Shown in pieces: positions 8,572 to 33,379 of a stretch of 64,000 nt of DNA. Numbering within the stretch: position 1 is the stretch's first letter; every line of letters starts with the position of its first letter. Source of the DNA: Nevskia sp. (GTDB lineage Bacteria; Pseudomonadota; Gammaproteobacteria; Nevskiales; Nevskiaceae); NCBI GenBank assembly GCA_030694365.1, contig JAUXYM010000083.1, forward strand, positions 1,901-65,900. The letters are read 5' to 3'. The notes beneath the pieces are model-generated. The model had not been told where the DNA came from. It saw only the letters and a program-made list of their open reading frames with translations, and ran no database searches. The translations under genes were made by a program, and so were the position numbers.

Positions 8572-8593
8572 GCCCAGCCGTGTGCTGGCCGGC

Positions 8594-8986
8594 TCAGCGA
8601 CAGGATTCCGCCTTGGTCAGCACATCCATCGACACCTTCTGCCCACCATGCAGGCCGCCATGCAGCACCACGTGACGGCAAGCCCCGCTGACGGTGCAGA
8701 TATCGCCGCAGGCGCCGTAATGGCGCTTGCTGTCCGGTGGTGTTGCGGCCGGCATCGAACGGATCAGTGAATCCAGCGTCCGCGCGATGTCGGCGTGAGG
8801 ACTCATCAGATGGCCCTGCAGCAGCAGCGCCATCATCGAAGCGGTCAACAGCAGCACCAACGGCGTCAACACCGACGCGCCGATCATCGACGCGGCAGCA
8901 AGCCGCCGGGGGCCGGACCGGCGGGGCCGCAAGTCGCCTCCGTCCACTGACGGCGCATCGCATCGCCGTCGTTGCCATCCCTGCAC
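8594..8986 (-). CDS. Hypothetical protein, one hydrophobic segment and a Cys-containing C-terminus
   Basis: Fills the gap between nlpC and the htpG terminator; GAGGA upstream of start; no recognised family. Confidence 0.4.
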   Translation of the reverse strand: MQGWQRRRCDAPSVDGGDLRPRRSGPRRLAAASMIGASVLTPLVLLLTASMMALLLQGHLMSPHADIARTLDSLIRSMPAATPPDSKRHYGACGDICTVSGACRHVVLHGGLHGGQKVSMDVLTKAESCR

Positions 8987-9058
8987 GTCAATTCCTCGCC
9001 ATTTCTGGACGAGTCGCTACAACTTCCGTTCCTGGCTGCAAACGAGGTGCCGGCCACG

Positions 9059-9090
9059 AAAAACGGCGCGACAAATCATTGTCGCGCCGT
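9059..9090 (-). terminator. Intrinsic terminator of htpG
   Basis: ACGGCGCGACAA-loop-TTGTCGCGCCGT hairpin with T tract on minus strand. Confidence 0.8.
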
Positions 9091-9125
9091 CGGCTCAGGC
9101 GGGAATCCGGCGAAGCTTTTGAAGC

Positions 9126-11015
9126 TCAGTCGATGATGATCCGGCTCGCTTCTGCCGCCGGCTTGGCGTTCGACAGGATCAGTGTATTGAGCCGGCGCAC
9201 GAAGGCCGCCGGATCCTCGAGCTGGCCGCCTTCGGCGAGCACGCTCTGGTCGTACAGGATCGCCGCCAGGTCATCGAACTCGCCATCGGCAGCGGCTTTC
9301 AGACGCTCGACCAGCGGATGCTCGGCGTTGATTTCCAGCACCGGCGGCATGGCGGGTGCTGCCTGCCCGGCCTGCTTGAGAATCTTCTCGAGACGACGGC
9401 TGTAGCCGAAATCCGGTGCCACCAGACAGGCCGGCGATTCGACTAGCCGTGACGACAGCCTGGCACTTTCGATCTTCACGCCCAGCGATTTGCCGAGCCG
9501 CTCCAGCAGCGGCGCGAACTCGGTCTCGGTCTTTTCCTTCTCCGGCGTGCTGAGGTCCGACGCCAGATCGGCGCCACCGACGGCGCAGGATTCCAGCGGC
9601 TTGCCGTCGAACTCGTTGAGGTGCATGACCACCCATTCGTCGATGCGGTCGGACAGCAGCAGCACTTCCCAAGCCTTCTTGCGGAAACCTTCGACATGCG
9701 GCACGGCGCGCGCAGCGGCGGGCGTGTCACCAGTCACGTAATAGATTTTGGTCTGGCCTTCCGGCATCCGGGCGACGTAATCGGCCAGCGACACCTTGGC
9801 ACCATCGGTCGCGGTGGTGGAATCGAAGCGACACAGCTTGGCGATCCGCTCGCGATTGACGTTGTCCTCGACCAGACCTTCCTTCAGCACGGCACCGAAG
9901 ACATCCCAGAACTTCGCGTAGTCGTCCGGCTTGTTCCTGGCCAGATCGTCGAGCAGGTCGAGCACCCGCTTGGTCAGCGCTGATTTCAGCTTCTCGACAT
10001 TGCGATTGCCCTGCAGCAGTTCGCGCGACACGTTGAGCGGCAGATCATCGGAATCGACCAGACCGCGGACGAAGCGCAGATAGGCCGGCAGCAGCTCGGC
10101 GCCGTGATCCATGATGAACACGCGCTTCACGTACAGCTGTAAACCGCGCGCCTTGTCGCGATCCCAGAGATCGAAGGGTGCGGTGCCCGGAATGTAGAGC
10201 AGCGAGATGTAGCTGAGATTGCCTTCGACTCTCTGATGCGCCCAGCTCAGCGGCTTGCCCGGATCGAAGGACAGGGCGCTGTAGAAGCTGTGGTAGTCCT
10301 CGTCGCTCAGCTCGGATTTCGGACGCGTCCACAGGGCTGCGGCCTTGTTCAGCGTTTCGACCTCGCCGTCATCGACCTTCAGCCGCACCGGCAGGCCGAT
10401 GTGGTCGGAGTACTTGCGCACCAGATGGCCGATGCGGCCGGCTTCGAGAAACTCCCTCTCGTCGTCACGCAGATGCAGCGTGATATCGGTGCCGCGCTCG
10501 TTCTTGATGACCGGTTCCAGCGAATAGCTGCCTTCGCCGGTCGATTCCCAGACATGTGCTGCGGTCTCGCCGGCCCGGCGCGAAGTGACCGTGACCATGT
10601 CGGCAACGATGAACGCCGAGTAGAAGCCGACGCCGAACTGGCCGATCAGCTGGGCGTCCTTCTTGCCGTCGGCGGACAGCTGCTCCATGAACGCCTTGGT
10701 GCCGGAGCGGGCAATGGTGCCGAGGTTGTCGACCAGATCCTCGCGGCTCATGCCGACGCCGTTGTCGCGCACGGTCAAGGTGCCGGCGGCGCTGTCGACG
10801 ATCAGATCGACAGCCAGCGCGGTGTCCTCGCCGAACAGCGCTGGATCCTGGATCGCCAGGAAGCGCAGCTTGTCGGCAGCGTCGGAGGCGTTCGAGATCA
10901 GCTCGCGCAGGAAGATTTCCTTGTTCGAGTACAGCGAGTGGATCATCAGCTTCAGCAGCTGGCGGGTCTCGGTCTGGAATTCGAATTGCTGCGGGGCGAC
11001 GGTATCGGTGGTCAT
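9126..11015 (-). CDS. htpG: Hsp90 chaperone HtpG
   Basis: YSNKEIFLRELISNASDA, IGQFGVGFYSAF, LPLNVSRE. Confidence 0.98.
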   Translation of the reverse strand: MTTDTVAPQQFEFQTETRQLLKLMIHSLYSNKEIFLRELISNASDAADKLRFLAIQDPALFGEDTALAVDLIVDSAAGTLTVRDNGVGMSREDLVDNLGTIARSGTKAFMEQLSADGKKDAQLIGQFGVGFYSAFIVADMVTVTSRRAGETAAHVWESTGEGSYSLEPVIKNERGTDITLHLRDDEREFLEAGRIGHLVRKYSDHIGLPVRLKVDDGEVETLNKAAALWTRPKSELSDEDYHSFYSALSFDPGKPLSWAHQRVEGNLSYISLLYIPGTAPFDLWDRDKARGLQLYVKRVFIMDHGAELLPAYLRFVRGLVDSDDLPLNVSRELLQGNRNVEKLKSALTKRVLDLLDDLARNKPDDYAKFWDVFGAVLKEGLVEDNVNRERIAKLCRFDSTTATDGAKVSLADYVARMPEGQTKIYYVTGDTPAAARAVPHVEGFRKKAWEVLLLSDRIDEWVVMHLNEFDGKPLESCAVGGADLASDLSTPEKEKTETEFAPLLERLGKSLGVKIESARLSSRLVESPACLVAPDFGYSRRLEKILKQAGQAAPAMPPVLEINAEHPLVERLKAAADGEFDDLAAILYDQSVLAEGGQLEDPAAFVRRLNTLILSNAKPAAEASRIIID

Positions 11016-11050
11016 GGAGCGCTCTCGGTGATGTTGGCCAACCCCGCCTT

Positions 11051-11078
11051 GTTGGGTTCATCCGCTGCCGCTTTCAAG
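11051..11078 (-). promoter_or_regulatory. Putative sigma-32 promoter of htpG
   Basis: Minus strand CTTGAAA-N14-ACCCAAC versus consensus CTTGAAA-N13/14-CCCCAT. Confidence 0.6.
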
Positions 11079-11120
11079 AGCCACCACATTTCAAACCAGC
11101 CGGGCTAGAAACCAACCATG

Positions 11121-11260
11121 CATTCCTTGCCCACTTCTCGGAGCATCCAAACCATCTGCTCGTCAGCGCAGAATGAATCGTGCCCGCTTCATGTGCTCCT
11201 GGCTCGTGGCGGGAGCCAGAATCTTAAGCAGCTACTGGTCCGTAATTCGACCAGCAGGCC
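11121..11260 (-). mobile_element. Degenerate left end and orfA start of an IS3-family element
   Basis: Minus strand ...GAGCCAGGAGCAC-ATG then MKRARF/frameshift/ADEQMVWMLREVGKE, resembling IS3 OrfA N-termini (MKxxRFTDEQMVxILREA). Confidence 0.6.
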
Positions 11261-11352
11261 GGCTACTATCGTGGTTCTACGGCGACGGTTCACAACGCCG
11301 AGTCGCGCCGCGAGACGCGGCGCTAACGGTTTGTTGTACGCGCGACACTCGC

Positions 11353-12634
<1,282 letters not shown>

Positions 12635-12649
12635 ATAAGTTGTTGGCCT

Positions 12650-14800
<2,151 letters not shown>

Positions 14801-15012
14801 GGGGCGTGAGTCCTCGTGGGGGTTGTACGGAAGCTACGGCTGGGACCGGGTCAAACAGGCCATTCGGTACCGTATGGAACGCTAATTATACGCGTCTTGT
14901 CCGGCTGGATTGCCATCGCCGCCGAGGCACGGCGGCAGACTGCGTTCCGGCGTTGGCGGCGCGGCCGGTGCGGCCAATGCCGAGCCCGGCAATGTCCTTG
15001 CAACTACTTGTT

Positions 15013-15042
15013 TTGACGCTGTTGTCAACGCCAACCTAGAAT
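15013..15042 (+). promoter_or_regulatory. Putative sigma-70 promoter with overlapping palindrome
   Basis: TTGACG-N18-TAGAAT; TTGAC-N6-GTCAA inverted repeat covers the -35. Confidence 0.45.
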
Positions 15043-15075
15043 CCCCCATCGTCCACCGCACCGAGGTAACGCGAC

Positions 15076-15939
15076 ATGGCTGACAAGAAGACTTTCACCA
15101 AGCCCATCAGCGATCTGTTGGAGATCGTCCGGCAATCGCTGGACACGCTCGGCAACGCCAACCAGATCGTTTACGGTGGCGTGCAGAAGCTGGCCGATGC
15201 CGAACTGAAGGCGCTGAACGACTATTACAAGGCCGCCGTCGCGTCGCTGAAGAAGGCGCAGGGCGACAAGAACATCAAGTCCGCCGCCCAGAAGCAGGCC
15301 ACCCTGTTGCAGGATGCGGTGACCAAGCTGATCGACAACGCCCGCGCGTCGCTGGTCGTGGTCTCCGATGCCCGCGCCGAACTCGCGAAGCTGGTCAAGG
15401 GTGGCAAGGGCGGCGCGCCGCTATCGATCGCCCGTCTCGAAAAAGCGATAAAGCCAGCGCAGAAAGCGCTCGCCAAGATCAAGGCCGATGCCCAGAAGGC
15501 TGGCAAGACTGCCAGCGCCACGGTCAAGAGCGCCAAGAAGGACATCAAGACCGAAGTCGCCAAGGTCGAGAAATCTCTGAAGGCCGACGTCAAAGCAGCC
15601 AAGAAGACCGTCAAGGCTGACGTCAAGGCGATCAAGAAGGTCGTCAAGGCAGTCGAGAATAATGTCATCAAGACTGCCAAGTCCGTCGAGAAGACCGTTG
15701 AAGACGCCGCCAAGGCGGGTGTTGCCGAAGCGAAGAAGATTGTCAGCCGCGCAGTGCCGACACCGTCACCGAATTCGCGCGCCAGCCGCGCGACCAGCGC
15801 TGCGAAGAAGGTGGTCACCAAAGTCACCGCAAGCGCGGAGAAGGCTGTCGATGCCGCCAAGGCCGGTGCCGAGTCAGCTTCGGCGAAAGTCAGTTCTGCG
15901 GTGAACTCGGCCGTCGATGCGGTCAAGTCGCAGGGTTGA
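15076..15939 (+). CDS. Phasin-like N-terminus with Lys/Ala/Val-rich low-complexity C-terminus
   Basis: GAGG RBS, own terminator, helical N-domain, repeats such as VKADVKAAKK. Confidence 0.6.
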   Translation: MADKKTFTKPISDLLEIVRQSLDTLGNANQIVYGGVQKLADAELKALNDYYKAAVASLKKAQGDKNIKSAAQKQATLLQDAVTKLIDNARASLVVVSDARAELAKLVKGGKGGAPLSIARLEKAIKPAQKALAKIKADAQKAGKTASATVKSAKKDIKTEVAKVEKSLKADVKAAKKTVKADVKAIKKVVKAVENNVIKTAKSVEKTVEDAAKAGVAEAKKIVSRAVPTPSPNSRASRATSAAKKVVTKVTASAEKAVDAAKAGAESASAKVSSAVNSAVDAVKSQG

Positions 15940-15987
15940 TCCGGAGCCAAGCCGCAGCTGATCGCGGCGTTCGGCTGCCCCTACGCC

Positions 15988-16019
15988 AAGCCTGCCGACA
16001 GGTCGTCGGCAGGCTTTTT
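15988..16019 (+). terminator. Intrinsic terminator
   Basis: AAGCCTGCCGAC-loop-GTCGGCAGGCTT plus T run. Confidence 0.8.
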
Positions 16020-16044
16020 CGTTGTTGTCGCTTGCTATCTCCGA

Positions 16045-16980
16045 ATGAAACTGAGCATCGCGCAAAGTACCGAACTGTGGCGTCTGCTCGCGGACGCCAG
16101 CAGGCTGCGCCTGCTGTTGCTGCTGGAGGCGCATCAGCTATCGGTTGCCGAGCTGACCGAAATTACCGGGTTGGCGCAAAGCCGCGTGTCGACCCACCTC
16201 GGGCGTTTGAAGCGAGCCGGTCTCGTTCAGGCTGGACGCAGTGGTGGCGGCGCGCTCTATTCCTTGAGTCCGGATCGCGGTCGCGCCTTCGAACTTTGGG
16301 CGGTGATGCGCGAGCGGCTCGAAGATCCACAAGCTCAACTCGATCGCGAACGCGCCAGCGAAGTAGTGCGCGTCCGCAAGCATGGTCAGACCTGGGCGGA
16401 ATCGGTCGCCGGACGCATGGAATTGCACTATTCGCCGGGCCGTACCTGGGAAGCGACGGCGCGGACCTTGATCGGCCTGCTCGATCTCGGCGACGTGCTC
16501 GATGTCGCCTCCGGCGACGGCGTGCTGGCCGAATTGATCGCCGAGCGCGCGCGCAGCGTGGCCTGTGCCGATATCAGCGCCAAGGTGCTGGGCGCGGCAC
16601 GACGCCGGCTCGGCGATCCGCGGAACGTCGCCTTCACCCAGGCCGACATGCGTCAGCTGCCGTATCGCGATGCCAGCTTCGATCATGTCTTCCTGATGCA
16701 TGCACTGACTTACGCGCGCAAGCCCGAAGCGGTGCTCGCCGAAGCCGCACGGTGCCTGCGCCCGGGAGGTCGTCTGGTCATCGCAACCTTGAGTGCCCAT
16801 CACCATGAGGCGGCGATGCAGGCATACGACCACGTCAATCTCGGGACAACTGCCGAGATGCTCGACAAATGGCTCAGCAAGGCGGGACTCGAGGTTGAAC
16901 TGTGCCGGATCACCTCACGCGATCCACGCCCTCCTTACTTTGAAGTGGTGAGCGCGCTGGCCCGACGCGCGGTGGCGTGA
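16045..16980 (+). CDS. ArsR HTH plus SAM-methyltransferase-fold regulator (SamR/SahR-like)
   Basis: LADASRLRLL..LSVAEL..QSRVSTHL HTH; HYSPGRTWEA; VLDVASGDG SAM motif. Confidence 0.85.
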   Translation: MKLSIAQSTELWRLLADASRLRLLLLLEAHQLSVAELTEITGLAQSRVSTHLGRLKRAGLVQAGRSGGGALYSLSPDRGRAFELWAVMRERLEDPQAQLDRERASEVVRVRKHGQTWAESVAGRMELHYSPGRTWEATARTLIGLLDLGDVLDVASGDGVLAELIAERARSVACADISAKVLGAARRRLGDPRNVAFTQADMRQLPYRDASFDHVFLMHALTYARKPEAVLAEAARCLRPGGRLVIATLSAHHHEAAMQAYDHVNLGTTAEMLDKWLSKAGLEVELCRITSRDPRPPYFEVVSALARRAVA

Positions 16981-18699: not shown

Positions 18700-20775
18700 A
18701 TGCGCGATCGTAAACTTCATTTTAGAACCATCGGCAACTGGTTGATGGCGTTATCGCTGGCGACCCTCGTGTCCGCCTGCGGCGAGAACCAGACCGGCGA
18801 CGTAACGCCACCAACGGTGATCGCCACGTCGCCGATCAACACCCAGACCGGGGTGCCCGTGTCGACTGCCGCCGTGACGGCGACTTTCAGCGAAGCGATC
18901 AACCCGGCGACGATCAACGGCACCAGCTTCCTGCTGACAGCCGGCGAAGGCGGGGCCGTTGCTGGCACCGTCAGCTATTCCGGTGTCGTCGCGAGCTACG
19001 CGCTCGCCGCACCGCTCGCGCCAAACACGACGTATACCGCGACCATCACAACCGCAGTTCGCGATCTCGTCGACAACCCGCTGGCCAGCAATTTCGTCTG
19101 GACGTTCACCACCGGCGCGCTCGGAGACACGACGCCGCCGCAGGTCAATGCAGTCGATCCGATCGACGCCTCGACCAATGTGCCAAGCAACCGTCGGGTC
19201 GTGGCAACCTTCAGTGAAGCTATCGACCCCGCCTCTATCAGCGCTACCAGCTTCACGCTGACGGGTCCTGGTGTCACGCCGGTCGCGGGGACCGCCAGCG
19301 TCGCCGGCTCGGTGTTGACCTTCACGCCGGGCAACGGCACGACCACCGCCCAGCTGCAGAACAACACGACCTACACGGCCACACTGGCAGCGGACATCAC
19401 AGATCTTTCCGGCAATCCGCTGGGAACCGCGTTCACTTGGACTTTCACTACGGGTGTGATCGACGACACCACGTCGCCTACCATCGTGCTGACTGACCCC
19501 TTCGCTGGCGAGACCGGCACCGCCGTCAACGCTCAGGTTACGGTCACCTTCAGTGAGGTGATCAATGCGGCCACTCTGACAGCGACCAGCTTCACGGTCA
19601 CCGATCCCAGCAATACCGTCATCGCCGGCACAATTGCCTACTCTGGCAACTCGGCGACCTTCACTCCGAGCACCCCGCTGGCGGCACTCACGCTGTTCAC
19701 GGTGACCGTCACCAACGCGGTGACTGACCTCGCCGGCAATGCCCTGGTGGGTTCGATCATCATGAACCCCTACCAGTTCACGACCGGCTTCGCACCGGAC
19801 ATCATCCCGCCGTTCGTCAACCTGACCTCGCCTCCCGACAGCGCCACCGACGTCTGCATCAACTCGACGATCAACGCGCGGTTCAGCGAGACGATAGATG
19901 CCAACACGATCAGCGCCGCCAGCTTCATCGTGACGGCACCGGATGGCTCGCAGGTTCCGGGGGCAGTGACGTACAACGCCACCACCCGCGTGGCGACGTT
20001 CCGGCAGGCGGAAAATTTTCTCGCCGATACCATCTACACCGCAACGGTTACCAGCGCCGTGACCGACCGGGCTGGCAATGCGCTGGTGCTGGGCACGGCA
20101 GCCAACCCGTGGACGTTCCGGATCGGCCCGACGAATACCGTCTGCCAGCTTCCGGTACCGCTTCGCTCGCTAGTGAGCTTCGCGTTGGTAGCCGGCAATG
20201 GCGTCAACATCAACAACACCGCAGGGCCAACGACCGTCACCGGAGATATTGCATTGGCACCGGTGACCACTTGTCTGCTATGCACCGCCCCGGATCTCGT
20301 GCTGAACGGCACTATTTACGCCAACACGGACATCGCAACCCAGGCGAAAGTAGATCTTCAACTCGCCTTCGACGACGCTCGTGGCCGTCCTGTCGGCCCC
20401 GACACGCCTCTGCTGACTGGACAAGTCCTGACACCGGGTGTTTTCAGTTCGGCGACAACGATGTCCCTCGGTGCCGATTCCGTGCTGACACTTGATGCGC
20501 TGGGAGATAGCAACTCCGTTTGGGTATTCCAGGTCGGAACCGATCTGACTTTTGGAGCGCGTTCGCAGGTCGTGCTACTGAACGGTGCGACGGCCTCCAA
20601 CGTCTTCTGGGTCGTCAACGGCAGTATCGCGAGCGGCAGCAATGCCGTAACGGGCGGCACGTTGATCTCCAATAATTCGGTCAACCTCGGAAACGGGACG
20701 CAAATCTTTGGAAGGCTCATGTCGTTTGGCGATATAGCCGTACGTCGCGCAACGATCAGTACGACCGCGCCTTAA
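18700..20775 (+). CDS. Lipoprotein with four Ig-like (Big_5-type) repeats and C-terminal DUF3494 ice-binding-like domain
   Basis: Lipobox VSAC; repeats starting DVTPPTV, DTTPPQV, DTTSPTI, DIIPPFV each with ATFSEAI-like motif; C-terminal LTPGVF, LTLDALGDSNSVWVFQVG, ASNVFWVV, GRL. Confidence 0.85.
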   Translation: MRDRKLHFRTIGNWLMALSLATLVSACGENQTGDVTPPTVIATSPINTQTGVPVSTAAVTATFSEAINPATINGTSFLLTAGEGGAVAGTVSYSGVVASYALAAPLAPNTTYTATITTAVRDLVDNPLASNFVWTFTTGALGDTTPPQVNAVDPIDASTNVPSNRRVVATFSEAIDPASISATSFTLTGPGVTPVAGTASVAGSVLTFTPGNGTTTAQLQNNTTYTATLAADITDLSGNPLGTAFTWTFTTGVIDDTTSPTIVLTDPFAGETGTAVNAQVTVTFSEVINAATLTATSFTVTDPSNTVIAGTIAYSGNSATFTPSTPLAALTLFTVTVTNAVTDLAGNALVGSIIMNPYQFTTGFAPDIIPPFVNLTSPPDSATDVCINSTINARFSETIDANTISAASFIVTAPDGSQVPGAVTYNATTRVATFRQAENFLADTIYTATVTSAVTDRAGNALVLGTAANPWTFRIGPTNTVCQLPVPLRSLVSFALVAGNGVNINNTAGPTTVTGDIALAPVTTCLLCTAPDLVLNGTIYANTDIATQAKVDLQLAFDDARGRPVGPDTPLLTGQVLTPGVFSSATTMSLGADSVLTLDALGDSNSVWVFQVGTDLTFGARSQVVLLNGATASNVFWVVNGSIASGSNAVTGGTLISNNSVNLGNGTQIFGRLMSFGDIAVRRATISTTAP

Positions 20776-20814
20776 ACCCTCCGACGATCACGCCCAAAGA
20801 CATAGGGAATACTC

Positions 20815-22008
20815 ATGAACAAGAAAATGACCGTCGGCCTGCTTGGAGCCTCGTTGCTCGGGTTGGTGTCGAGTGCCGCTGCCCAGAATCGTGCCGAAGC
20901 CTGGACCCTGACGCCCTATGTGGGTGGCTACCTGTTCGACTCGAAGCAGGATCTCGAATCGGCCCCATTGTTTGGCATGCGCGCCGGCTACAACTTCACC
21001 GAGAACTGGGGTGCGGAACTGTTTGGCAGCTACACGCTGACAGAATCGGACCGCGACTCGGGACCGGAAGTGAATGTCGAGTCGGATGTGTTTCGGTTCG
21101 GCGGCAACCTGCTCTATCACTTCCAGCCGACCAAACAGCTGGTGCCGTTCCTGGCGGTCGGTGTCGGCCGCTACAACATCACCATTCCCGATCTCGATCG
21201 GCCGAAGACCAACAAGACGCTGGCCGAGTACGGCGGCGGCCTCAAGTACTTCGTCGGTCCGGACTTCGCGTTGCGCGCCGACATTCGCCACGTCCTCGGC
21301 TTCAGCCCGTCGATCGGCAACTTCGAGTACACCTTCGGAGTTTCCTGGGAACTCGGCGGTGTAAGGCCGGCGGCACCGATCAAGGAGGTCGCACCGATCC
21401 CGCAGATTTGCGAGACCTGTGCGCCACCCCCTCCTCGGGTCGACAGCGACGGAGATGGCGTCGAGGATGCGCTCGACAAATGTCCGAATACGCCGAAGGG
21501 CTACAGGGTCGACGCTACCGGTTGCGTGATCGAGCAGACCGTCGTGCTCAGAGCCGTCAACTTCGTTCTCGACGGTTATGAACTGACGACCCCGGCGAAG
21601 GCGACACTCGATGAGGTGGCAGCGGTCCTGGTCAGTCAGCCGGTGCTGTCGCTGCAGGTTGGCGGCCATACCGATTCCACTGGCTCGGATCAGTACAACC
21701 AGAAGCTGTCGCAGCGTCGTGCGGATTCCGTGCGCAGCTACCTGATCAGCAAGGGCGTCGACGCGTCCCGCGTGATCGCCAAGGGTTATGGCGAAAGCGA
21801 GCCGATCAGCAGCAATGGGTCTCCTGAAGGCCGGGCTGACAATCGTCGTGTCGAGTTCAAGCTGCTCGAAAAGCCTGCCTTCGTGAAGGTCTACAACGAG
21901 GAGTCGTCAAGAGCCTCAAAGGCCGCAGGCAACAAGGAGTCATCACGAGCCTCGAAGGCCGGCGCAACGAAGCCTAGCAAGAAGCCAGGCAAGAAGAAAA
22001 AGAAGTAG
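20815..22008 (+). CDS. OmpA/OprF-like outer membrane protein
   Basis: Signal peptide, beta-barrel, DSDGDGVEDALDKCPNTP TSP3-like linker, GHTDSTGSDQYNQKLSQRRA..NRRVE peptidoglycan-binding domain. Confidence 0.93.
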   Translation: MNKKMTVGLLGASLLGLVSSAAAQNRAEAWTLTPYVGGYLFDSKQDLESAPLFGMRAGYNFTENWGAELFGSYTLTESDRDSGPEVNVESDVFRFGGNLLYHFQPTKQLVPFLAVGVGRYNITIPDLDRPKTNKTLAEYGGGLKYFVGPDFALRADIRHVLGFSPSIGNFEYTFGVSWELGGVRPAAPIKEVAPIPQICETCAPPPPRVDSDGDGVEDALDKCPNTPKGYRVDATGCVIEQTVVLRAVNFVLDGYELTTPAKATLDEVAAVLVSQPVLSLQVGGHTDSTGSDQYNQKLSQRRADSVRSYLISKGVDASRVIAKGYGESEPISSNGSPEGRADNRRVEFKLLEKPAFVKVYNEESSRASKAAGNKESSRASKAGATKPSKKPGKKKKK

Positions 22009-24206: not shown

Positions 24207-24770
24207 ATGGCTTTCCGCCCATCGAGCCGCCTGTTTTTGTGCACAGTGCTTGCCTGCCTGCCTGCCGCGGTGCACGCCGCCCCGCCGCAGCCAGCCGATC
24301 CGGCCGTGCTGGAAATCGACCGGACGCTGCAGGTGTTGAAGTCGGAAGTCTTCGACATCAACCAGCAAGCGATCCGCACCGAGGACGCCTTCCTCTATCC
24401 CGAGCAAACCCGGGTGACGATCTATGTCGGCATGGATGCTCCGGGCCTGCTGCTCGACGAGGTGGTGGTCACCGTCGACGGCAACGCGCCGGTTCGCCGC
24501 AAGGTCGAAGTCACCGAAGCCGTTGCCCTGCAGCGCCGCGGCCTGTATCGAGCGCTGCGCCTGAATGTCACCCCGGGCGCGCACCGCTTGTGGGCAGAAT
24601 TCAGTGGCCGCTACGCAGACACCGGTGTCGATGGCCAGCGCCTGCGCGGCCGTTACGAAGCGCTGTTCGACAAGACTGATCGGGCATCTGATCTCGAAAT
24701 CCTGATTGCAACGCCAGGCCTTGGTCAGCAGCCGACCATGGCGCTGCGCGACTGGAGACCGTCGCGATGA
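24207..24770 (+). CDS. Exported hypothetical protein, first gene of the Agl/Glt-like operon
   Basis: Signal peptide, coiled segment, beta-rich C-terminus; 4-bp overlap with next gene. Confidence 0.75.
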   Translation: MAFRPSSRLFLCTVLACLPAAVHAAPPQPADPAVLEIDRTLQVLKSEVFDINQQAIRTEDAFLYPEQTRVTIYVGMDAPGLLLDEVVVTVDGNAPVRRKVEVTEAVALQRRGLYRALRLNVTPGAHRLWAEFSGRYADTGVDGQRLRGRYEALFDKTDRASDLEILIATPGLGQQPTMALRDWRPSR

Positions 24771-26587
24771 TCCGCAGCATTCTTTGTGCCACCTTGCTGA
24801 CCGCATCGATTCCAGCGCTGGCCATCGATCGTTACGAACCGGGCAGCGCCAACGATCCGCATGTGCGTGCTGCCGAGTTTCTGATCGGCGACCAGCGCTA
24901 CTTCAGTGCCTCGACCGAACTGCTGCAGTTGATCGGCGAAAAGCCGGATCGCCAGTTGTCGAAGGTCTACTTCCGGCGGCTGGCCGATGCCACGCTGAAC
25001 TTCGGCGTCGAACAGCGCGCCAGCACCATCTACCGCGAATTGGTGCCGGAGCCGACCACCGCTCTGTCGCTGGCCCGCGCCCGCATCCAACTGGCGGAAT
25101 TCGACTACCAGCGCGGCAAGCTCGCCGAGGCGATCGCCGAACTCGAAGCGCTGAAGCCGCAGCTGCCGAAGCAGGCGACGCTGGAATGGCAGGATCTGCT
25201 CGGCCGTGCGCTGCTCGCTCAGGGCCGCTACAAGGAAGCGGCGGCGGTGCTTGCCGAGCTCAAGGATGCCGGTCTGCAGCGAGCGCTGACCCGTTACAAC
25301 TACGGCGTCGCGCTGATCAAGGACGGCCGCATCCCCCAAGGGCTGAGCGTGCTCGACAAGGTCGGTCAGATCGCTGCAGACGATCCCGATGAGCTGGCCG
25401 TGCGTGACAAGGCCAATCTGGCGCTCGGCTATCACTTTTTGCGCAATCAGCAGGGCGGCTCGGCGGTCGGCGTACTCCAGCGCGTGCGCAGCGATGGTCC
25501 GCTGTCGAATCGCGCACTGCTCGGCCTTGGCTGGGCGTATCTGGCACCGGGCGGCAAATCGCAGAAGGCCGGCGACGAGGGCGCCAGCATCTCCAAGACC
25601 TTGTCGACCATCGGCGTGCTGCTGCGGCCCGGATTTCTCGATAACGACATCTACAAGCGCGCCGGCCTCCAGTCCGTCAAGCTGACCAAGGCATCGGCTG
25701 ACGAAGAAGCCGCACTGAAGCGAGCGCTGGTGCCCTGGGTCGAACTCGCCACGCGCGATACCATCGACCCGGCGGTGCAGGAAGTGCTGCTGGCGATTCC
25801 GTTCACACTCGACAAGCTGGGTGCCCACCTGCAGTCGGAAGCGTTCTACCAGCGGGCCATCGACGCACTCACGGCGGCGCGCAGGCGCCTTGACGAAAGC
25901 GCCGCTTATGTCCGCAGCGGCCGCATGATTTCGACGATGGTCCGGCGCACGCAGAATGTCGAATCGGGCTGGGACTGGGAGCTGAAGGATCTGCCGGATG
26001 CACAGGAAACCTATTACCTGCAACGTCTGATCGCCGAGAACCGCTTCCAGGAGCCGCTGAAGAACTATCGCGATGCCCTGCTGCTGAAGCGCAATCTCGA
26101 AGCCTGGAAAGATCGCATGAGCGATGCCCAGGCCGGTTGGCTGGCCCGCAAGGGGCCTGCGGTCTCGACCGAGCAATTGCTGAGCCTGCAGATCAGCAAG
26201 CAGAAAGAAACGCCGAAGGTGACCACGCCCGGTGTGCCGCCACCGCCGGTGAGCTTGCGACTCAGCGAAACCTTGAGCCCGGCGGATTTCGCAACGGTCT
26301 CGGCAACGCCGCCGGTCATCGGTTCGCCGATCATCCTGCTGGCCGCCAAGGCACCGGCGTCGGCGGCGTTCAGTGGCGTCTACGAACGCATGAACGTGCT
26401 GAAGCTGCGCATTGACGAACTGCTGCCTCGGGTCGACACCACCGCGAAGGCGCAGGGCAAGCTGATCGAGAAGCTGGCGCTCGACAATCTCGCCGATCAG
26501 CGCCGCTACACCGAGAAATATCTGATCGAAGCGCGCTTCTCGATGGCTCGCATCTACGACCGCCAGCTCAAGGGAGCGACGCCCTGA
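24767..26587 (+). CDS. Exported TPR protein (GltC-like)
   Basis: Signal peptide; helical repeats (RYNYGVALI, DKANLALGY, ALLGLGWA); overlaps neighbours. Confidence 0.75.
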   Translation: MIRSILCATLLTASIPALAIDRYEPGSANDPHVRAAEFLIGDQRYFSASTELLQLIGEKPDRQLSKVYFRRLADATLNFGVEQRASTIYRELVPEPTTALSLARARIQLAEFDYQRGKLAEAIAELEALKPQLPKQATLEWQDLLGRALLAQGRYKEAAAVLAELKDAGLQRALTRYNYGVALIKDGRIPQGLSVLDKVGQIAADDPDELAVRDKANLALGYHFLRNQQGGSAVGVLQRVRSDGPLSNRALLGLGWAYLAPGGKSQKAGDEGASISKTLSTIGVLLRPGFLDNDIYKRAGLQSVKLTKASADEEAALKRALVPWVELATRDTIDPAVQEVLLAIPFTLDKLGAHLQSEAFYQRAIDALTAARRRLDESAAYVRSGRMISTMVRRTQNVESGWDWELKDLPDAQETYYLQRLIAENRFQEPLKNYRDALLLKRNLEAWKDRMSDAQAGWLARKGPAVSTEQLLSLQISKQKETPKVTTPGVPPPPVSLRLSETLSPADFATVSATPPVIGSPIILLAAKAPASAAFSGVYERMNVLKLRIDELLPRVDTTAKAQGKLIEKLALDNLADQRRYTEKYLIEARFSMARIYDRQLKGATP

Positions 26588-29478
26588 TGCAATCGAATCC
26601 CTGCCCGAATCCATCTGCAAAACTCGTTGCCGGGCTGCGCACGCCGCTGGCCCTGTCGGTTGCGGCCCTGTTTCTTGCCGGCTGTGCCGCATCGCAGTCC
26701 AAGGACATATCGCCGCCGATTCGTACTTTGACCCGGCAGTCGGCGCCGGCTGAAGACAAGCTGCCGGTGATCCGCTCCGAAGCGGTGACTACCGATCCGG
26801 AAAAGGCGATTGAAAATTATCGCGAACTGCTCAGGCTGAAGCCGGACGACAATACTCGTGTCGAAGCGACGCGCCGCCTCGCCGATCTGCTGCTGCAGGT
26901 CGAGGACAGCAGGGGCGATGCCGATCCGGCCGTGATCGCCAAAGTCATCGCCCTGTACAAGTCGCTGCTCGCCGAAAGTCCCAACGATCGCAACAACGAC
27001 CGACTGCTCTATCAGCTTTCCCGTGGCTATCAGATCAATGGACAGATCGAAGACGCGATCGCGACGCTGCGCCGCCTCGGCGACCTGTATCCGACCTCGA
27101 ACCTGATCGGCGACGCGCACTTCCGCAACGCGGAAATTCTTTACGGCCTCGGCCGCTATGACGAAGCCGAGAAGGATTACCAGTTCGTGCTCGGCCTCGG
27201 CAGCACGGCGACTTTCTTCGAGTCAGCCCAGTACAAGTACGGCTGGTCGCTGTTCAAGCAGAGCAAGTACGACGCCTGTCTGCCGGTGTTCTTCACCATC
27301 CTCAATCGCGAACTGCCAGCCGGCGAGCTGGAAGATCCGGACGCCACCCTCAAGGCGGTCGGCAAGGACAAGGCAGAACTGGCGTCGTCCAGCCTGCGGG
27401 TGTCGAGCCTCGCCTTCGCCGCGTTGGGCGGCGGCAACGCGATCAACGACTACTTCACCCGCAGCGCCAGGGTGACCGGCGGTGGCGAACCGCGCTTCTA
27501 TCCGCTGGTCTACAACGCGCTGGGCGAACTGTTCGTCGAGAAACGTCGCTACAGTGATGCTGCCGTCAGTTACGCCGCGTTCATCGCCCGCTACCCGAGC
27601 CATCCCAGCGCGCCGAAGTTCCAGACTCGCGTCATCGGTGCCTACCAGGACGGTGGCTTCAACGATCTCGTGGTCCGCGAGAAGGAACGCTACGTAACCG
27701 CTTACGAGCCGGGCACCTCGTACTGGACCGGCCGCCAGCCGACCGCCGAAGTGCTGACCGTGTTGCGCAAGAGCTTCGAGGACCTCGGTCGTCACTATCA
27801 GGCGCGCGCTCAAGCCGGTCAGCAGGCTGGCCGCAGCGGTGAAGCCATGAAAGATTTCGTCGCCGCAGCCGGGTGGTATCAGAAGATCCTGATCAACTTC
27901 CCGTCCGATCCGAAAATTGCCGACGTGAACCTGCTTTACGCCGATACTTTGTTCGACGGTGGCCGCACCGCGGATGCCGCGAACCAGTATCTGAAGACTG
28001 CGTACAGCTACGGTAACCACCCGAAGGCTGACGAAGCCGCCTACGCCGCCGTGCAGGCCTGGCAGCGTCTGGTCAAGGAAGTGCCTGCTGCCGAACGGCC
28101 CGCCGCGCTGCGGCAGTCGATCGACGCCAGCCTGAAGCTGGCCGATACCTTCCCTGCGCATCCGCAGTGGACCGTCGTCGTCACCCGAGCCGCGCAGGAT
28201 CTTTTCGAGATCAAGGCGCTCGACGAGGCGGTGAAGGTCGCCGAACGCTTGCTTGCACGCACGCCGGCCGCCACCCCTGATCAACGCCGAATCGTGCTCG
28301 GTGTGGTCGCCGACGCCCGCTTTGCCCAGGCCCGTTATCCGGATGCCGAAGCAGCCTACGGCAACCTGCTGAGCTTGCTGGCGCCGAGCGCGCCAGAGCG
28401 CAGGATCGTCGCCGATCAGCTCGCCGCATCGATCTACAAGCAGGGTGAAGCAGCGCGTACCGCCGGCAATCTGCGGGTGGCGGCAGACGCCTTCCTGCGG
28501 GTCGGCGCGACGGTGCCGGATGCCAGCATCCGCCCGAATGCCGATTACGACGCCGCCAGCGCTTACCTGTCGCTCGAGGACTGGCAGAAAGCGGCGATGA
28601 CCTTGGAAGGTTTCCGTAGCCGCTATCCGAACAATCCGCTGATCTCGGATGTCGACAAGAAACTTGCCGCGACCTATCAGAAGGATGGCAAGCCGGCTGC
28701 TGCTGCTGCTGCGTTTGCGCGCATCGCGCAGCGCACCAGCGAAACCGCAGATACCCGTCGCGAATCGGCCTGGCTGGCGGCAAGCCTGTACGACGAAGCG
28801 AAGATGGCAGCACCTGCCACCAAGGCTTACGAGTACTACGTCGGCAACTTCACGCAGCCGGTCGAGCGTAGTTCCATTGGTCGTCGCCGCCTCGCCGATC
28901 TGGCGCTGGCAGCGAATGACCGGGGCCGTTACCTGTACTGGCTCAACGAACTGGTCAAGGCCGATGTCGGTGCCGGTGCCGGTGCCGGGCGTACCGATGC
29001 CAGCAAGCTGGTGGCCGCGCAGGCCAGTCTCGAACTGGCACTGGCAGCCGCTCAGGACGCTCGCAACATCAAGCTGAGCCTGCCGGTCGAAAAGAGCCTG
29101 CTGGTGCGCAAGAACGCGACCGAACTCGCCGTTCAGGCACTGAATCGCTCGGCCGCTTATGGTTTTGCCGACACCACGACGGCGGCGACCTTCGAACTCG
29201 GTGTGGTCTACCGCGATTTCAGCCGTGCCCTGGTGGAATCCGAACGACCGAAGAATCTGAAGGCGGACGAACTCGAACAGTACAGCCTGCTGCTGGAAGA
29301 ACAGGCTGATCCGTTCGTCCAGAAAGCCATCGAGGCTCACGAAGCCAATTTGAAGCGTGTCAGCCAGAACCTGTGGAATCCGTCGATCGCCAAGAGCGTC
29401 AAGGCGCTCGGCGAACTGGCTCCGGCGAAATACGGCAAGCGCGAAATCCGCGAGGACTCCTATGACACCCTGCGTTGA
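26587..29478 (+). CDS. Large TPR lipoprotein (GltD/AgmU-like)
   Basis: Lipobox LAGC; many TPR-like repeats; C-terminal LEQYSLLLEEQADPF motif. Confidence 0.8.
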   Translation: MQSNPCPNPSAKLVAGLRTPLALSVAALFLAGCAASQSKDISPPIRTLTRQSAPAEDKLPVIRSEAVTTDPEKAIENYRELLRLKPDDNTRVEATRRLADLLLQVEDSRGDADPAVIAKVIALYKSLLAESPNDRNNDRLLYQLSRGYQINGQIEDAIATLRRLGDLYPTSNLIGDAHFRNAEILYGLGRYDEAEKDYQFVLGLGSTATFFESAQYKYGWSLFKQSKYDACLPVFFTILNRELPAGELEDPDATLKAVGKDKAELASSSLRVSSLAFAALGGGNAINDYFTRSARVTGGGEPRFYPLVYNALGELFVEKRRYSDAAVSYAAFIARYPSHPSAPKFQTRVIGAYQDGGFNDLVVREKERYVTAYEPGTSYWTGRQPTAEVLTVLRKSFEDLGRHYQARAQAGQQAGRSGEAMKDFVAAAGWYQKILINFPSDPKIADVNLLYADTLFDGGRTADAANQYLKTAYSYGNHPKADEAAYAAVQAWQRLVKEVPAAERPAALRQSIDASLKLADTFPAHPQWTVVVTRAAQDLFEIKALDEAVKVAERLLARTPAATPDQRRIVLGVVADARFAQARYPDAEAAYGNLLSLLAPSAPERRIVADQLAASIYKQGEAARTAGNLRVAADAFLRVGATVPDASIRPNADYDAASAYLSLEDWQKAAMTLEGFRSRYPNNPLISDVDKKLAATYQKDGKPAAAAAAFARIAQRTSETADTRRESAWLAASLYDEAKMAAPATKAYEYYVGNFTQPVERSSIGRRRLADLALAANDRGRYLYWLNELVKADVGAGAGAGRTDASKLVAAQASLELALAAAQDARNIKLSLPVEKSLLVRKNATELAVQALNRSAAYGFADTTTAATFELGVVYRDFSRALVESERPKNLKADELEQYSLLLEEQADPFVQKAIEAHEANLKRVSQNLWNPSIAKSVKALGELAPAKYGKREIREDSYDTLR

Positions 29479-30157
29479 GCTGATGAACATGCCGCGCGCG
29501 CCCCGCTGGCTCGGTATCGCGATGATCGTCGCGCTGGCCACAGGTTGCGGTGCCCAGCCAAGAAAGACGGCGCCAGCCGCCGTCCCAAGCAAGCCGGCAC
29601 CCGAAGCCGTCACTGGCAAGGCGGCCGCCGGCAAAGGCGATCCGCAGGCGCGTTTCGATGAAGCCCTGAAATTGATGAAGGGCCGGCAGACCAAGGAGGC
29701 GCGCGAAGCCTTCCTGGCGCTGGCTCGTGACTTCCCGAATTTCTCCGGGCCGTTCACCGACCTGGCGATCCTGCAGGCCAAGGCCAATCAGCCGACGCTG
29801 GCCATCGACAATTTTGAAAAGGCGACCCGCCTGAACGCCGACAACGCGACGGCCTGGAACTGGCTCGGCACGCTGTATCGCGAGGGCAAGGATTACCAAA
29901 AGGCCGAAACGGCGTACAAGACGGCGCTGAATCTGAAGCCCAACCTCGCCGCTTCGCATTTGAATCTCGGTCTGCTGAACGATCTGTATCTGCGCCGTCC
30001 GCAGGAGGCGCTGAACCACTACCGCGAGTACCAGCGCCTCGCCGGCGGCGATAAGCTGATTGTCACCGCCTGGATTCGCGAACTCGAAGCCCAGTTGCCG
30101 CCGCCGGTTCCGGCGGCGGCAACTGCGCCCGCACCTGCTGGAGCCCGCAAGCCATGA
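29462..30157 (+). CDS. TPR lipoprotein (GltE/AglT-like)
   Basis: GAGGA RBS before ATG 29462; lipobox ATGC; TPRs AWNWLGTLYR, HLNLGLLNDLY. Confidence 0.8.
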   Translation: MTPCVELMNMPRAPRWLGIAMIVALATGCGAQPRKTAPAAVPSKPAPEAVTGKAAAGKGDPQARFDEALKLMKGRQTKEAREAFLALARDFPNFSGPFTDLAILQAKANQPTLAIDNFEKATRLNADNATAWNWLGTLYREGKDYQKAETAYKTALNLKPNLAASHLNLGLLNDLYLRRPQEALNHYREYQRLAGGDKLIVTAWIRELEAQLPPPVPAAATAPAPAGARKP

Positions 30158-30642
30158 ACCTCTCCCGACTTCTGAGTACCACCTGCTCAGCCGCGCTGCT
30201 CTCGGCACTCTCGCTGCAAGTGCAGGCCCAGGAAGAACAACCGATCGCCACGCCGCAGATCAGGGTCCCGTCGAACACCGGGCGATTGAATGGTCCGATC
30301 ATCGAGATACCGAGAAACACTGCTGCACCGACTCCGGCACCGGTGCCAGCGCCAGCGCCGTCAGCGCCACCCGCTTCGGCAGCGACCGCCCCCGGTTCCG
30401 CTGCGGTGCCAATTCCGGAAAATGCGACGTCAGGCACTACCATCGTCGGCGACCGGGAATCCCCGATCGGCCTGTACATCACGCCATGGAAGGATGACTA
30501 CGCCGAGCGCGGGCTTGATCGCCCCGCTCGTCTGGTCGATGAAGCCATGGAACCGATCGATCCGGCAACTTTCCGTCGCCAGATCGAGTATTACGAAACG
30601 ATCACGGCATTCCGCAAGCGCCAGCAAGACGCTGCGAAGTAA
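30154..30642 (+). CDS. Small exported protein with Pro/Ala linker (GltF-like)
   Basis: Signal peptide; C-terminal IVGDRESPIGLYITPWK motif; position between TPR gene and motor genes. Confidence 0.65.
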   Translation: MNLSRLLSTTCSAALLSALSLQVQAQEEQPIATPQIRVPSNTGRLNGPIIEIPRNTAAPTPAPVPAPAPSAPPASAATAPGSAAVPIPENATSGTTIVGDRESPIGLYITPWKDDYAERGLDRPARLVDEAMEPIDPATFRRQIEYYETITAFRKRQQDAAK

Positions 30643-30686
30643 CACCCTCCCTTTTCATTCAAGCAACCCGCAAACGAGGAATCCCC

Positions 30687-31319
30687 ATGGAGTTCTTTTC
30701 CACCGTCATCCGCTACTTCACAGCCGGCGGTGAGTTCATGTACCCGATCCTGGTCGTGCTCGTCATTGGGCTCGCGATCACCATCGAACGTCTGATCTAT
30801 CTGCGCCGCGCCTCCGTCGAGAACCGCGAGGTCTGGGCCAAGCTGATGCCGCTGGTCAACGCCGGCCGTCACGAAGAGGCTGAAGCGATTGCAGCCGCCT
30901 CGACGACCGCCATCGGCCGAGTCCTCGGTTACGGCCTCGCCCGCTCACGCGGTGCGACCAGCCGCGAGGAAGTCGAACTGGCGATGGAAGAAAGCCTGAT
31001 GGAAGTGACTCCGCAGCTCGAGCGTCGCACCCACTATCTCGCCACCTTCGCGAACGTGGCGACCCTGTTCGGCCTGCTCGGCACCATCGTCGGCCTGATC
31101 GCTGGCTTCACGGCGGTGTCTGGCGTCAACCCGGCGCAGAAGCAGGACCAGCTGTCGGCGGCCGTTGCCGTCGCCATGAACTGCACCGCCTTCGGCCTGA
31201 TCACCGCGATTCCGCTGCTGCTGATCCACGCCTGGCTGGTAACCAAGACCGACGAGATGATCGACAGCCTCGAGATCGCATCGGTGAAGTTCCTGAACAG
31301 TCTCGGCCTCAAGAAGTAA
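30687..31319 (+). CDS. MotA/TolQ/ExbB proton channel protein (AglR-like)
   Basis: ANVATLFGLLGTIVGLI and AMNCTAFGL transmembrane motifs. Confidence 0.93.
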   Translation: MEFFSTVIRYFTAGGEFMYPILVVLVIGLAITIERLIYLRRASVENREVWAKLMPLVNAGRHEEAEAIAAASTTAIGRVLGYGLARSRGATSREEVELAMEESLMEVTPQLERRTHYLATFANVATLFGLLGTIVGLIAGFTAVSGVNPAQKQDQLSAAVAVAMNCTAFGLITAIPLLLIHAWLVTKTDEMIDSLEIASVKFLNSLGLKK

Positions 31320-31350
31320 TGGTCGGCGGTAGCCAACGGACGATCCGCCG

Positions 31351-31866
31351 ATGATGCAAGGAATTTCCCGCGACACCCGACGCGCACTGCGCCGGGTCAG
31401 GCGCAAGCGCAGCACCGAGCTGAATCTGGTGTCGATGATCGACATCCTGACCGTGCTGATGTTCTTCCTGTTGGTGAACTCGATCGGCCTGTCGATCCTG
31501 GGCATCAATCTGCCGAACGACGACGCCTCGGCCTCGGAACCGCCACCGCACAATCTCTCCGTGCTGATCCGCAAGAACGATCTGGCGCTCAGCGATAACG
31601 GCTACATCGTGCGTGCGGTCCCGTCGAAAGCTGAAGGCTATGACTTCGAAGCGCTGTCGGTGCTGATGCGCGAGACCAAGAAACGGCTGCCGGCCGAATC
31701 GAAGGTCACGCTGCTGTCCGAGCCAGGCATTGCTTACGAAGTGCTGGTGTCGGTGATGGATGCCGTGCGCGTCGATCTGACCGCCACCGGGCCGGATACC
31801 GTCGAACTGTTCCCGCAGATTTCGCTGGGCGATGCCCCGGCCATAACGGGGGGCGCCAAGCGATGA
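31351..31866 (+). CDS. ExbD/TolR family protein (AglQ-like)
   Basis: LNLVSMIDILTVLMFFLL with conserved Asp; YEVLVSVMD. Confidence 0.9.
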   Translation: MMQGISRDTRRALRRVRRKRSTELNLVSMIDILTVLMFFLLVNSIGLSILGINLPNDDASASEPPPHNLSVLIRKNDLALSDNGYIVRAVPSKAEGYDFEALSVLMRETKKRLPAESKVTLLSEPGIAYEVLVSVMDAVRVDLTATGPDTVELFPQISLGDAPAITGGAKR

Positions 31867-32414
31867 GCCTGCGTACTTCCGCCAAGCGCAAACGAATCGT
31901 GCGCAAGGCCCAGCGGACCGAGACCCCAGGTGCGGTAGGCCTGAATCTGGTACCGATGATCGACATCTTCACGTCGCTGCTGATCTTCCTGCTGCTCAGC
32001 TCCACAGCGGTGCAGCAGATCCGCACGCCGAAGTCGTTGACCTTGCCGTTGGCCGCCACCGTGCAGCCGCCGAACGATACCGGCGTGCTGACGGTATCGA
32101 CCGACGGCGTTACCTGGCAGGGAACCTTGGTCATGAGTCTCGAAGACGCCCAGACGACGCCAGGCAACATCCTGGAACCGTTGAAGGCGCAGCTGGTGCT
32201 ATCGCCGCTGGTCGCCATGCAGGGCACCGGGGAAGCGGGCAAGCAGACGCGAGGCGAGGTCAATATCCTGGCTGACAAGGCCATCCCCTACGCTCTGCTG
32301 AAGAAAATCATGGCCACCTGTGGTGACGCGCAGTTCGCGCGTATCTCGCTGTCGGTGAACCGTCGTTCGATCAACGCGCTTGGTGGTGGTGCCGGTCTGG
32401 GAGCCAAGCCATGA
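31863..32414 (+). CDS. Second ExbD/TolR family protein (AglS-like)
   Basis: LNLVPMIDIFTSLLIFLL with conserved Asp; ADKAIPYALLKKIMATC. Confidence 0.9.
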   Translation: MSLRTSAKRKRIVRKAQRTETPGAVGLNLVPMIDIFTSLLIFLLLSSTAVQQIRTPKSLTLPLAATVQPPNDTGVLTVSTDGVTWQGTLVMSLEDAQTTPGNILEPLKAQLVLSPLVAMQGTGEAGKQTRGEVNILADKAIPYALLKKIMATCGDAQFARISLSVNRRSINALGGGAGLGAKP

Positions 32415-33379
32415 ACGCGGTGATCATGTCGCGGACCATCCGCTGGGATGCCTGGCAGCTGATCGAGGAAGCCGATCGCCGGTTCCGGCGCATCTTCGTC
32501 AGCGTCGCCGTGCCGGCCTTGGCGCTGGTGGTGTTGACCCACTTTTTCTATGTCTCGCCAGAGCCCAAGCTGCCGCCGGCATTCGACAGTTCCCAGTACG
32601 TCGAACTGCTGCCGGAACCGGAAGTGAAAAAACCGGAGCCGGAAAAAAAGATCGTCGAGCCGATCAAGGAAGCACCGCCGAAGCCGGTCAAGCCGATCGA
32701 ACAAGTGAAGCCGAAGCCGATCGAAAAGCCACCGACCGTGGTCCAGGTCAAACCTGAACCGACGGCGAAGGAAGTGGCGGAAAAGTCCGGCCTGCTGGCG
32801 ATGAAGGACGCACTGAGCAGCCTGCGTGACCAGAATCTGGCCAGCGCGACCAGCGACCGGCCACTGAGTTCATCGACGATCACCTCGAAGAGCGGTATCG
32901 GCTCTGCCGCGTCGGCAGATGCCATCGCCGCATCGGCGACCGCCAACAGCGGCGGCATCCGGAACGGCAACGGCGTCACTTCATCGCAGGACGGCGTCGG
33001 CCTCGGTTCACGCAGCACCGGCAAGGTCAGCAGCCCGCTCGGGAGCGGCAACGGTCCGGCCAAAGGCGGCCCGCCAGGGCCCGATGGCGGCCGCAATGCC
33101 AGCGAAGTGCAGGCGGTGTTCGCCAGGAACCAGGGGCCGTTCTACGCAATCTTCAACCGTGCGGCGCGTGACAACGCCGATATCGGTCGCGGCAAGATCG
33201 TGGTCCGTCTGACCATAGCGCCGAACGGCTCAGTGGTCTCCTGCACGATGCTGTCGAGCAGCTACGGCGATGCCGAACTGGAGCGTAAGATCGTCGAGCG
33301 CATCAAGCTGATGAATTTCGGTGCCAAGGCTGGCCCGAATTTCACGCTGGACTATCCGCTCAACTATATTCCTCAGTAA
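32411..33379 (+). CDS. TonB-like energy transducer (GltG / AgmX-PglI C-terminal type)
   Basis: N-terminal TM, Pro/Lys/Glu linker, Gly/Ser-rich linker, C-terminal [15 protein letters not shown] domain. Confidence 0.85.

Follow-up and report, generated by a model that had tools for sequence, protein, structure and literature searches.

The operon is an Agl-Glt core complex

Is the nine-gene operon at positions 24207-33379 of a 64,000-nucleotide (nt) stretch of a Nevskia sp. genome (contig JAUXYM010000083.1; the whole stretch is called the window) a new kind of proton-driven envelope machine, and what could such a machine act on? A preliminary description of this DNA had presented it as an uncharacterised system and a third class of Ton/Tol-like motor. 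On sequence grounds, we find that the nine genes are the Agl-Glt core complex and not a new class, because the cluster was published in 2011 as the core complex; the word uncharacterised holds for its function and not for the cluster itself. The core has been proposed as ancestral to both the gliding and the spore-coat machinery. We tentatively favor a reading, to which we give somewhat less than an even chance, in which the operon would be a proton-driven puller on small outer-membrane barrels, by analogy with its relatives, and would place or hold surface proteins and not move the cell.

The nine open reading frames (ORFs) called here, numbered g1 to g9 in order, all lie on the + strand. Five of the eight junctions overlap, by 1 to 4 nt, while gaps of 44 nt and 31 nt separate g5 from g6 and g6 from g7, respectively. 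ORFs, domains, and lipoboxes agreed with what had been described, i.e., mostly overlapping, co-directional genes for exported, TPR, ExbB- and ExbD-like and TonB-like proteins, and the nine genes indeed include no TonB-dependent receptor, TolB or Pal. The operon is flanked by gloB and fabI, its GC content is about that of the flanking DNA, and a scan of it for promoters and terminators stayed at chance level.

The core complex described by Luciano et al. in 2011 consists of gltC, gltD, gltE, and gltG, aglR, aglQ, and aglS, and one extra gene; it was reported in non-gliding Gammaproteobacteria, Geobacter, and Fibrobacter, its function being given as unknown, and the listed carriers include Cellvibrio japonicus (CJA_3312-3319) and Marinobacter (PMC3169522). 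It has been considered a possible basal transport machinery (PMC3858216). Its order, gltC-gltD-gltE-[extra]-aglR-aglQ-aglS-gltG, and its gene lengths (e.g., TERTU_3747-3740 and Gura_3077-3070) correspond to those of g2 to g9. The window operon differs in having nine genes instead of eight, with g1 as a conserved member, and the extra gene is likely GltF (see below). Judged by family matches, order, and length in the fetched loci, from which we assigned the myxobacterial gene names, each of the nine genes has a myxobacterial counterpart.

The kinship with Agl and Glt proteins was borne out by profile searches, in which g3, g6, g7, g8, and g9 picked GltD/NfsD, AglR, AglQ, AglS, and GltG/NfsG, respectively, far above canonical ExbB, ExbD, and TonB; grouping with TolQRA or ExbBD-TonB, the outcome named beforehand as speaking against this kinship, was not seen in a quick tree. 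The operon shares the AglRQS motor and, with GltE and GltF as probable members, the GltC-G transducer with the Agl-Glt gliding and Agl-Nfs spore-coat machines. With TolQRA-TolB-Pal and ExbBD-TonB it shares membership of the 5:2 proton motor superfamily and a TonB/TolA-like transducer, but it differs from them by two different ExbD-like subunits and a TPR scaffold.

Distribution and conserved gene order

The g3 sequence was used as query on Gammaproteobacteria, of which 400 genomes were scored and 1 further genome was unscored. It matched in 79, so that roughly one in five of the genomes sampled from the class has the core complex. Among 41 relatives, a tally that counts the source genome itself and one unpublished genome (G027), 36 had g3, including all 24 sampled genomes of the source genus. 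No match was found on plasmids. We compared 82 loci, comprising 80 regions fetched around g3 matches (20 from relatives and 60 from class genomes, picked for long contigs and spread), the window, and a second copy in the source genome; these loci are non-independent. All nine genes were present in the same order in 58 of the 82, an order that is therefore not due to chance, and 3 more had g1 and g2 fused. Most of the remaining loci were scaffold-only copies. The gene mltD stood directly upstream of the core in 6 same-order loci; we discounted it as a partner because it is missing at the window site, and regard its position as ancestral gloB-mltD synteny.

The source genome is 3.08 Mb and 89% complete. 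Its second core copy (G000 contig C14, ~6700-16323) has g1 and g2 in one reading frame and a g3 that is 50% identical to that of the window. This copy and those at L039, L043, L044, and L047-L049 have an ANTAR regulator and genes of the nitrate/nitrite assimilation type as neighbors, and a cupredoxin-domain OmpA barrel usually comes after the core; the copies at L043, L047, and L049 are without motor genes and g9.

The motor subunits and their membrane aspartates

The AglR-type channel subunit g6 (30687..31319, +; MotA_ExbB E 9.5e-26) is 41% identical to a Myxococcus protein, and its family profile, run on myxobacterial genomes, scored AglR at E 1e-54 and other ExbB/TolQ proteins at 1e-25. T133 and T167 are invariant (66/66), and five positions ahead of the second of these Thr residues 58 of 66 members have Val, where TolQ and ExbB carry Glu. 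Scores against the tolQ, exbB, and tolR families were far below the cut-offs. When 51 channel subunits, 26 of them from the 66 core sequences, were put in a quick tree, the core grouped on the same side as AglR and M2, with a Shimodaira-Hasegawa-like approximate likelihood ratio test (SH-aLRT) value of 85. Sequence searches of the PDB returned only distant TolQ/ExbB for g6 and only generic TPR proteins for g3, and viral contigs searched with g6 gave one weak match.

The two ExbD-like proteins, g7 (31351..31866, +; ExbD E 2e-11) and g8 (31863..32414, +; ExbD E 4e-14), are of the AglQ and AglS type, respectively, with AglQ (E 4e-24) and AglS (E 1e-33) as the best myxobacterial matches of their profiles. 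Across the 62 loci in which both were called, first and second subunits separated cleanly, 62 and 62. That both keep the membrane Asp was confirmed for the window, where it is D31 in g7 and D34 in g8. It did not hold for the wider family: the AglS-type Asp is invariant (62/62), but at the AglQ-type column 51 loci have Asn and 11 have Asp, and outside the source genus Asn was found in 50 of 52 loci. Within the genus, for which 30 of 32 matches were fetched and 1 was unread, 27 of 29 readable AglQ-type subunits carry Asp. Two aspartates are a trait of the source genus and not of the core-complex family. The two Asn-type AglQ proteins of the genus sit in the two genomes with a TIGR04565 (GltA/B-type) barrel over the cut-off. 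Both genomes, G022 (locus L057) and G014, have a divergent core with a g3 identity of 36-37%, and these cores were possibly acquired sideways.

Myxobacterial AglQ carries Asp in the AglQ-type column. Going by position, we infer that this column equals D28 of Myxococcus AglQ, where the D28N substitution abolished proton conductance and motility (PMC3858216). The Asp of the window g7 stands on an AglS-like helix: the g7 membrane segment scored as AglS-type (-57.8 bits) and its periplasmic part as AglQ-type (+214.5), while most family members have Asn. The same combination of AglS-type helix and AglQ-type periplasmic part was seen at L116, in another family. The simplest reading of these sequences would be that gene conversion put an AglS-type helix on g7. 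This Asn/Asp asymmetry between AglQ and AglS was not found in the literature searched, including the accessible part of PMC9389320, and it is relevant to the rotation mechanism of 5:2 proton motors.

Scaffold and transducer

Three TPR proteins belong to the scaffold. The periplasmic protein g2 (24767..26587, +) resembles GltC/NfsC and is likely the connector on the outer-membrane side. Its profile aligned by hhalign to GltC (probability 92%, E 6e-7) and to the NfsC-position protein (96.5%, E 1e-9), and in the two genomes checked its best genome-wide match was a GltC-family paralogue, the second-best match of the GltC model NF033756. That model was itself matched, weakly, by only 2 of 70 g2 members. 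With moderate confidence, based on these alignments, we regard g2 as a GltC homologue. The GltD-like lipoprotein g3 (26587..29478, +; 963 amino acids [aa]) was assigned from its TPR domains, lipobox (LAGC), and profile, which scored GltD at E 1e-73, the NfsD-position protein at 7e-74, and a paralogue of the Myxococcus G4 type at 5e-104. The GltE-like lipoprotein g4 (29462..30157, +; lipobox ATGC) starts at 29462, 29483 or 29489, and not at the upstream GTG. It occupies the position of gltE in the published order; its match to NF033758 (E 3.7e-8) is far below the cut-off, and its profile reached GltE at E 2e-38, but another TPR protein scored higher, pointing to generic TPR likeness. Fusions of g1-g2, g2-g3, and g3-g4 each occurred in 3 of 82 loci, suggesting that the scaffold proteins are chained. 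The natural g2-g3 and g3-g4 fusion proteins (L066, L075, and L084; L071, L081, and L094) are useful for structure work.

The GltG-like TonB-type transducer g9 (32411..33379, +) has a membrane helix, a Pro-rich linker, and a C-terminal domain that matched the AgmX/PglI family NF033768 with 49 bits (cut-off 40); the full-length GltG model was not reached. Its profile scored GltG at 7e-18, the NfsG-position protein at 2e-23, and myxobacterial TonB at 3e-6. The predicted g9 model resembles TonB/TolA C-terminal domains, with a best Foldseek E of 1.2e-3 and none reaching 0.001. Longer proteins related to the g9 tip were searched for, and none was found.

The small genes g1 and g5

The exported protein g1 (24207..24770, +) had no Pfam or NCBIfam match. 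Its predicted model, with a predicted local distance difference test score of 94.7, combines a long N-terminal helix with a transthyretin-like β-sandwich; the best fold match was an uncharacterised protein (Z 9.5, root mean square deviation 3.5, 102 aligned residues), and the fold points to no function. An "AraC regulator" label for g1 is unsupported: it comes from automatic cluster naming, and no Pfam family backs it.

A g1 homologue (E 1.5e-9) opens a cluster in Myxococcus sp. Y35, which lies behind mglBA with the order g1, g2, g3, g4, GltF-like, g9 and gave the best g3 score above. By position and length we take it as G4, MXAN_1919-1923. It differs from the window operon in lacking motor genes and in having longer proteins. 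The 447-aa gene of G4 was listed as a GltC homologue, and a polar MXAN_1922 mutation left motility unaffected, with the function given as unknown (PMC3169522); with our g9 profile, the 447-aa gene is GltG-like (E 4e-23). The Y35 cluster (L220, 5400-18100) runs from mglBA to a barrel gene and a gene that by eye encodes a Wza-like lipoprotein, a possible clue to G4 function.

The cluster also links g5 (30154..30642, +), a small exported adaptor, to GltF. The g5 family aligned by hhalign to the G4-type GltF-like family at E 5.9e-4, a score reached by 0 of 100 column shuffles, and that family aligned in turn to GltF with a probability of 95%. Among 5985 ORFs, 19 of the top 30 matches of the G4-type GltF-like profile were g5 members. 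Because of these two steps, g5 is likely a remote GltF. Compared directly, g5 and GltF gave E 0.04, with 8 of 100 shuffles as high; the GltF model NF033764 was matched by 0 of 63 g5 members, and a g5 search of 4 myxobacterial genomes returned no match. The assignment, not found in the literature searched, is at odds with the published view that the extra gene lacks homologues in myxobacteria (PMC3169522). Both g1 and GltF likely belong to the ancestral core.

The g5 family holds a conserved strand, L-x-G-T-x-I-x-G, which we take to resemble a TonB box. Counted from the C-terminus, the aligned strand appears to be the one that an AlphaFold model of Agl-Glt pairs, in GltF, with the TonB-like tip of GltG (PMC11761067).

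Outer-membrane barrels as candidate clients

TIGR04565 barrels over the cut-off were present in 54 of 401 class genomes, and all 54 had g3; no genome of this sample has such a barrel without g3. This strict dependence was not found in the literature searched. GltA/B-type barrels also exist outside Myxococcales and Bdellovibrionales, the two groups to which the 2011 list of Luciano et al. confined them. About 20 of the 82 loci carry two barrels (TIGR04565 and an SH3-barrel) and a 900-aa propeller lipoprotein beside the core. Most of these add thioredoxin and DUF3570, often also DUF4266 and ApbE, and about 10 of the 82 loci add a LamG/haem set. DUF3570 is among the substrates that ApbE flavinylates (PMC8238504). 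In Myxococcus, GltC is bound to GltA/B, and these barrels expose the lipoprotein CglB (PMC11761067).

The window copy consists of the core genes alone, with no GltA/B-type barrel linked to it. The family barrel profile finds nothing in the source genome (89% complete), and the profiles of the module genes find nothing there but an unlinked ApbE. The best TIGR04565 match of the genome, at 51.9 bits (cut-off 60), is an OmpA-family barrel with a peptidoglycan-binding domain (20815..22008, +), located 2.2 kb upstream of the operon and a possible client outside it; the barrel is 27% identical (E 5e-8) to the SH3-barrel of the fuller clusters. Immediately after the C14 copy, the contig breaks off within another OmpA-type barrel gene, of which it holds the start. 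Of the 15 loci from the source genus, 9 have an OmpA-type gene no more than 7 kb from g3, and in 5 of these it lies 46-295 nt behind the last gene. OmpA-type barrels are thus the best, if weakly supported, client candidates in the source genome. Just upstream, at 18700..20775 (+), a lipoprotein that combines four Big_5 domains with an ice-binding-like one is a possible cargo, going by proximity. The lipoprotein and OmpA genes (18700-22008) stand between dnaQ and rnhA in the source genome and in G002, and look like a lineage-specific insertion; four further genus genomes have an OmpA gene at a similar distance from g3.

By description, a core with an OmpA gene at its head exists in a different phylum, in Fibrobacter succinogenes (FSU_2396-2403), where OmpA FSU_2396 and TPR FSU_2397 were reported to share a complex with cellulases, all of these proteins being upregulated on cellulose (PMC6851124, PMC4619616). 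Three further reports had little bearing on the core (10.1101/2023.06.07.544157, 10.64898/2026.08.28.747804, and PMC13104615). We found no mutant phenotype of a gammaproteobacterial core in a literature search that largely left subscription journals outside its coverage.

Put together, five g6 subunits would surround a g7-g8 heterodimer, by analogy with the AlphaFold Agl-Glt model (PMC11761067), and proton flow would power g9. The latter would span the wall and wrap the g3-g4 lipoprotein scaffold, and its TonB-like tip would pair with the conserved g5 strand. The C-terminal helix of g5 may dock into g2, and g1-g2 would grip the periplasmic face of the barrel, which would be GltA/B-type in most carriers, with OmpA-type candidates in the source genome.

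Several observations weigh against this proposal. No TIGR04565 barrel over the cut-off was found in 25 of 79 g3 carriers, the source genome among them. OmpA-type genes lie near g3 in just 1 of 67 loci outside the genus, whose members are kin; five genus loci of the first copy have no nearby OmpA gene, the upstream site included, one of the 9 OmpA-linked loci (L044) has the gene inverted and without a barrel, and the genome has 13 OmpA-domain matches in all. The GltF call for g5 is indirect, and those of GltC and GltE rest partly on generic TPR likeness. Finally, clients may differ, as many cores have housekeeping genes for neighbors and 3 of the 82 loci fall within type VI secretion clusters. 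At the latter (L080, L083, and L091), scaffold genes lie directly behind type VI genes, or an 895-aa gene, by eye a possible kinase, separates them from the motor half.

A rather doubtful, though possible, extension of the barrel-puller reading joins the clients to the aspartate pattern. Most gammaproteobacterial cores would be one-aspartate 5:1:1 motors; the source genus would have returned to an axle with two aspartates, through a copy of the AglS helix placed on AglQ, and, without GltA/B barrels, would aim the motor at OmpA-type tethers via a soluble TonB-box adaptor (GltF). If true, this would offer a natural motor pair to test whether 5:2 motors need two alternating aspartates.

Alternative functions

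The alternative that survives best, which we nevertheless consider unlikely, is a Tol-like housekeeping motor that maintains the outer membrane by shifting peptidoglycan tethers or lipids without a dedicated cargo. The presence of g3 throughout the sampled genus and in 35 of 40 relatives other than the source genome, the fixed site between gloB and fabI, the frequent lack of any linked partner, and the clustering of window g6 with same-order sequences in the channel tree are all consistent with it. It is opposed by a complete tolQRAB-pal-type locus, read from ORF sequences, on contig C52, by the absence of a g3 match in about 80% of class genomes, and by the strict dependence of the barrel modules on the core.

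Slime or stalk secretion had also been suggested for the operon. An Nfs-like spreader moving secreted polysaccharide or slime across the cell surface appears improbable, even though NfsC-G are equally close homologues, Nfs uses the same motor (PMC3858216), and the Wza-like gene adjoins the G4-type cluster in Myxococcus. The two Poly_export genes of the source genome are both on contigs other than that of the operon, no Wza-type export family recurs among the neighbors of the 82 loci, and family profile searches of the source genome found no NfsA/B-type barrels.

We regard as just as improbable a specialized TonB system energizing import via unlinked receptors or small barrels. The TonB-like fold predicted for g9, the 10 receptor plug domains of the genome, and the interpretation of the Fibrobacter cluster as a cellodextrin importer (PMC6851124) would fit this role. 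Against it, three other ExbB-type loci with TonB-like genes were read from ORF sequences elsewhere in the genome, and of the 82 loci one has a plug domain close to the core, by a profile built from the 10 plug domains of the source genome that recovers 10/10 there as control. Import would also leave five conserved scaffold genes unexplained, and g5 appears to bring its own box-like strand.

Gliding as in Myxococcus, proposed earlier as surface motility, is the weakest alternative and very unlikely despite the complete motor and transducer homology and the two aspartates kept as in AglQ and AglS (PMC9389320), because we found no MglA/B, no GltA/B/H-type barrel over the cut-off, no FHA domain on g9 in the domain search, and no GltJ-type extra gene (NF033768 matched just two g9 copies and one TonB-like gene in the incomplete genome), because flagellin is encoded, and because the core was judged insufficient for gliding (PMC3169522). 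Single-sequence searches of the genome gave no match for MglA, MglB, GltA, GltB, GltH, or GltG-FHA; as they also missed g2 and g5, only the MglA/B result is firm.

Other genes of the window

Away from the operon, 15076-15939 encodes a Lys/Ala-rich protein with a phasin-like start, just beyond fatty-acid oxidation genes. A PemK/MazF-like small gene (176-559) and a HigA-like helix-turn-helix gene (60541-60954) look by eye like parts of toxin-antitoxin systems.

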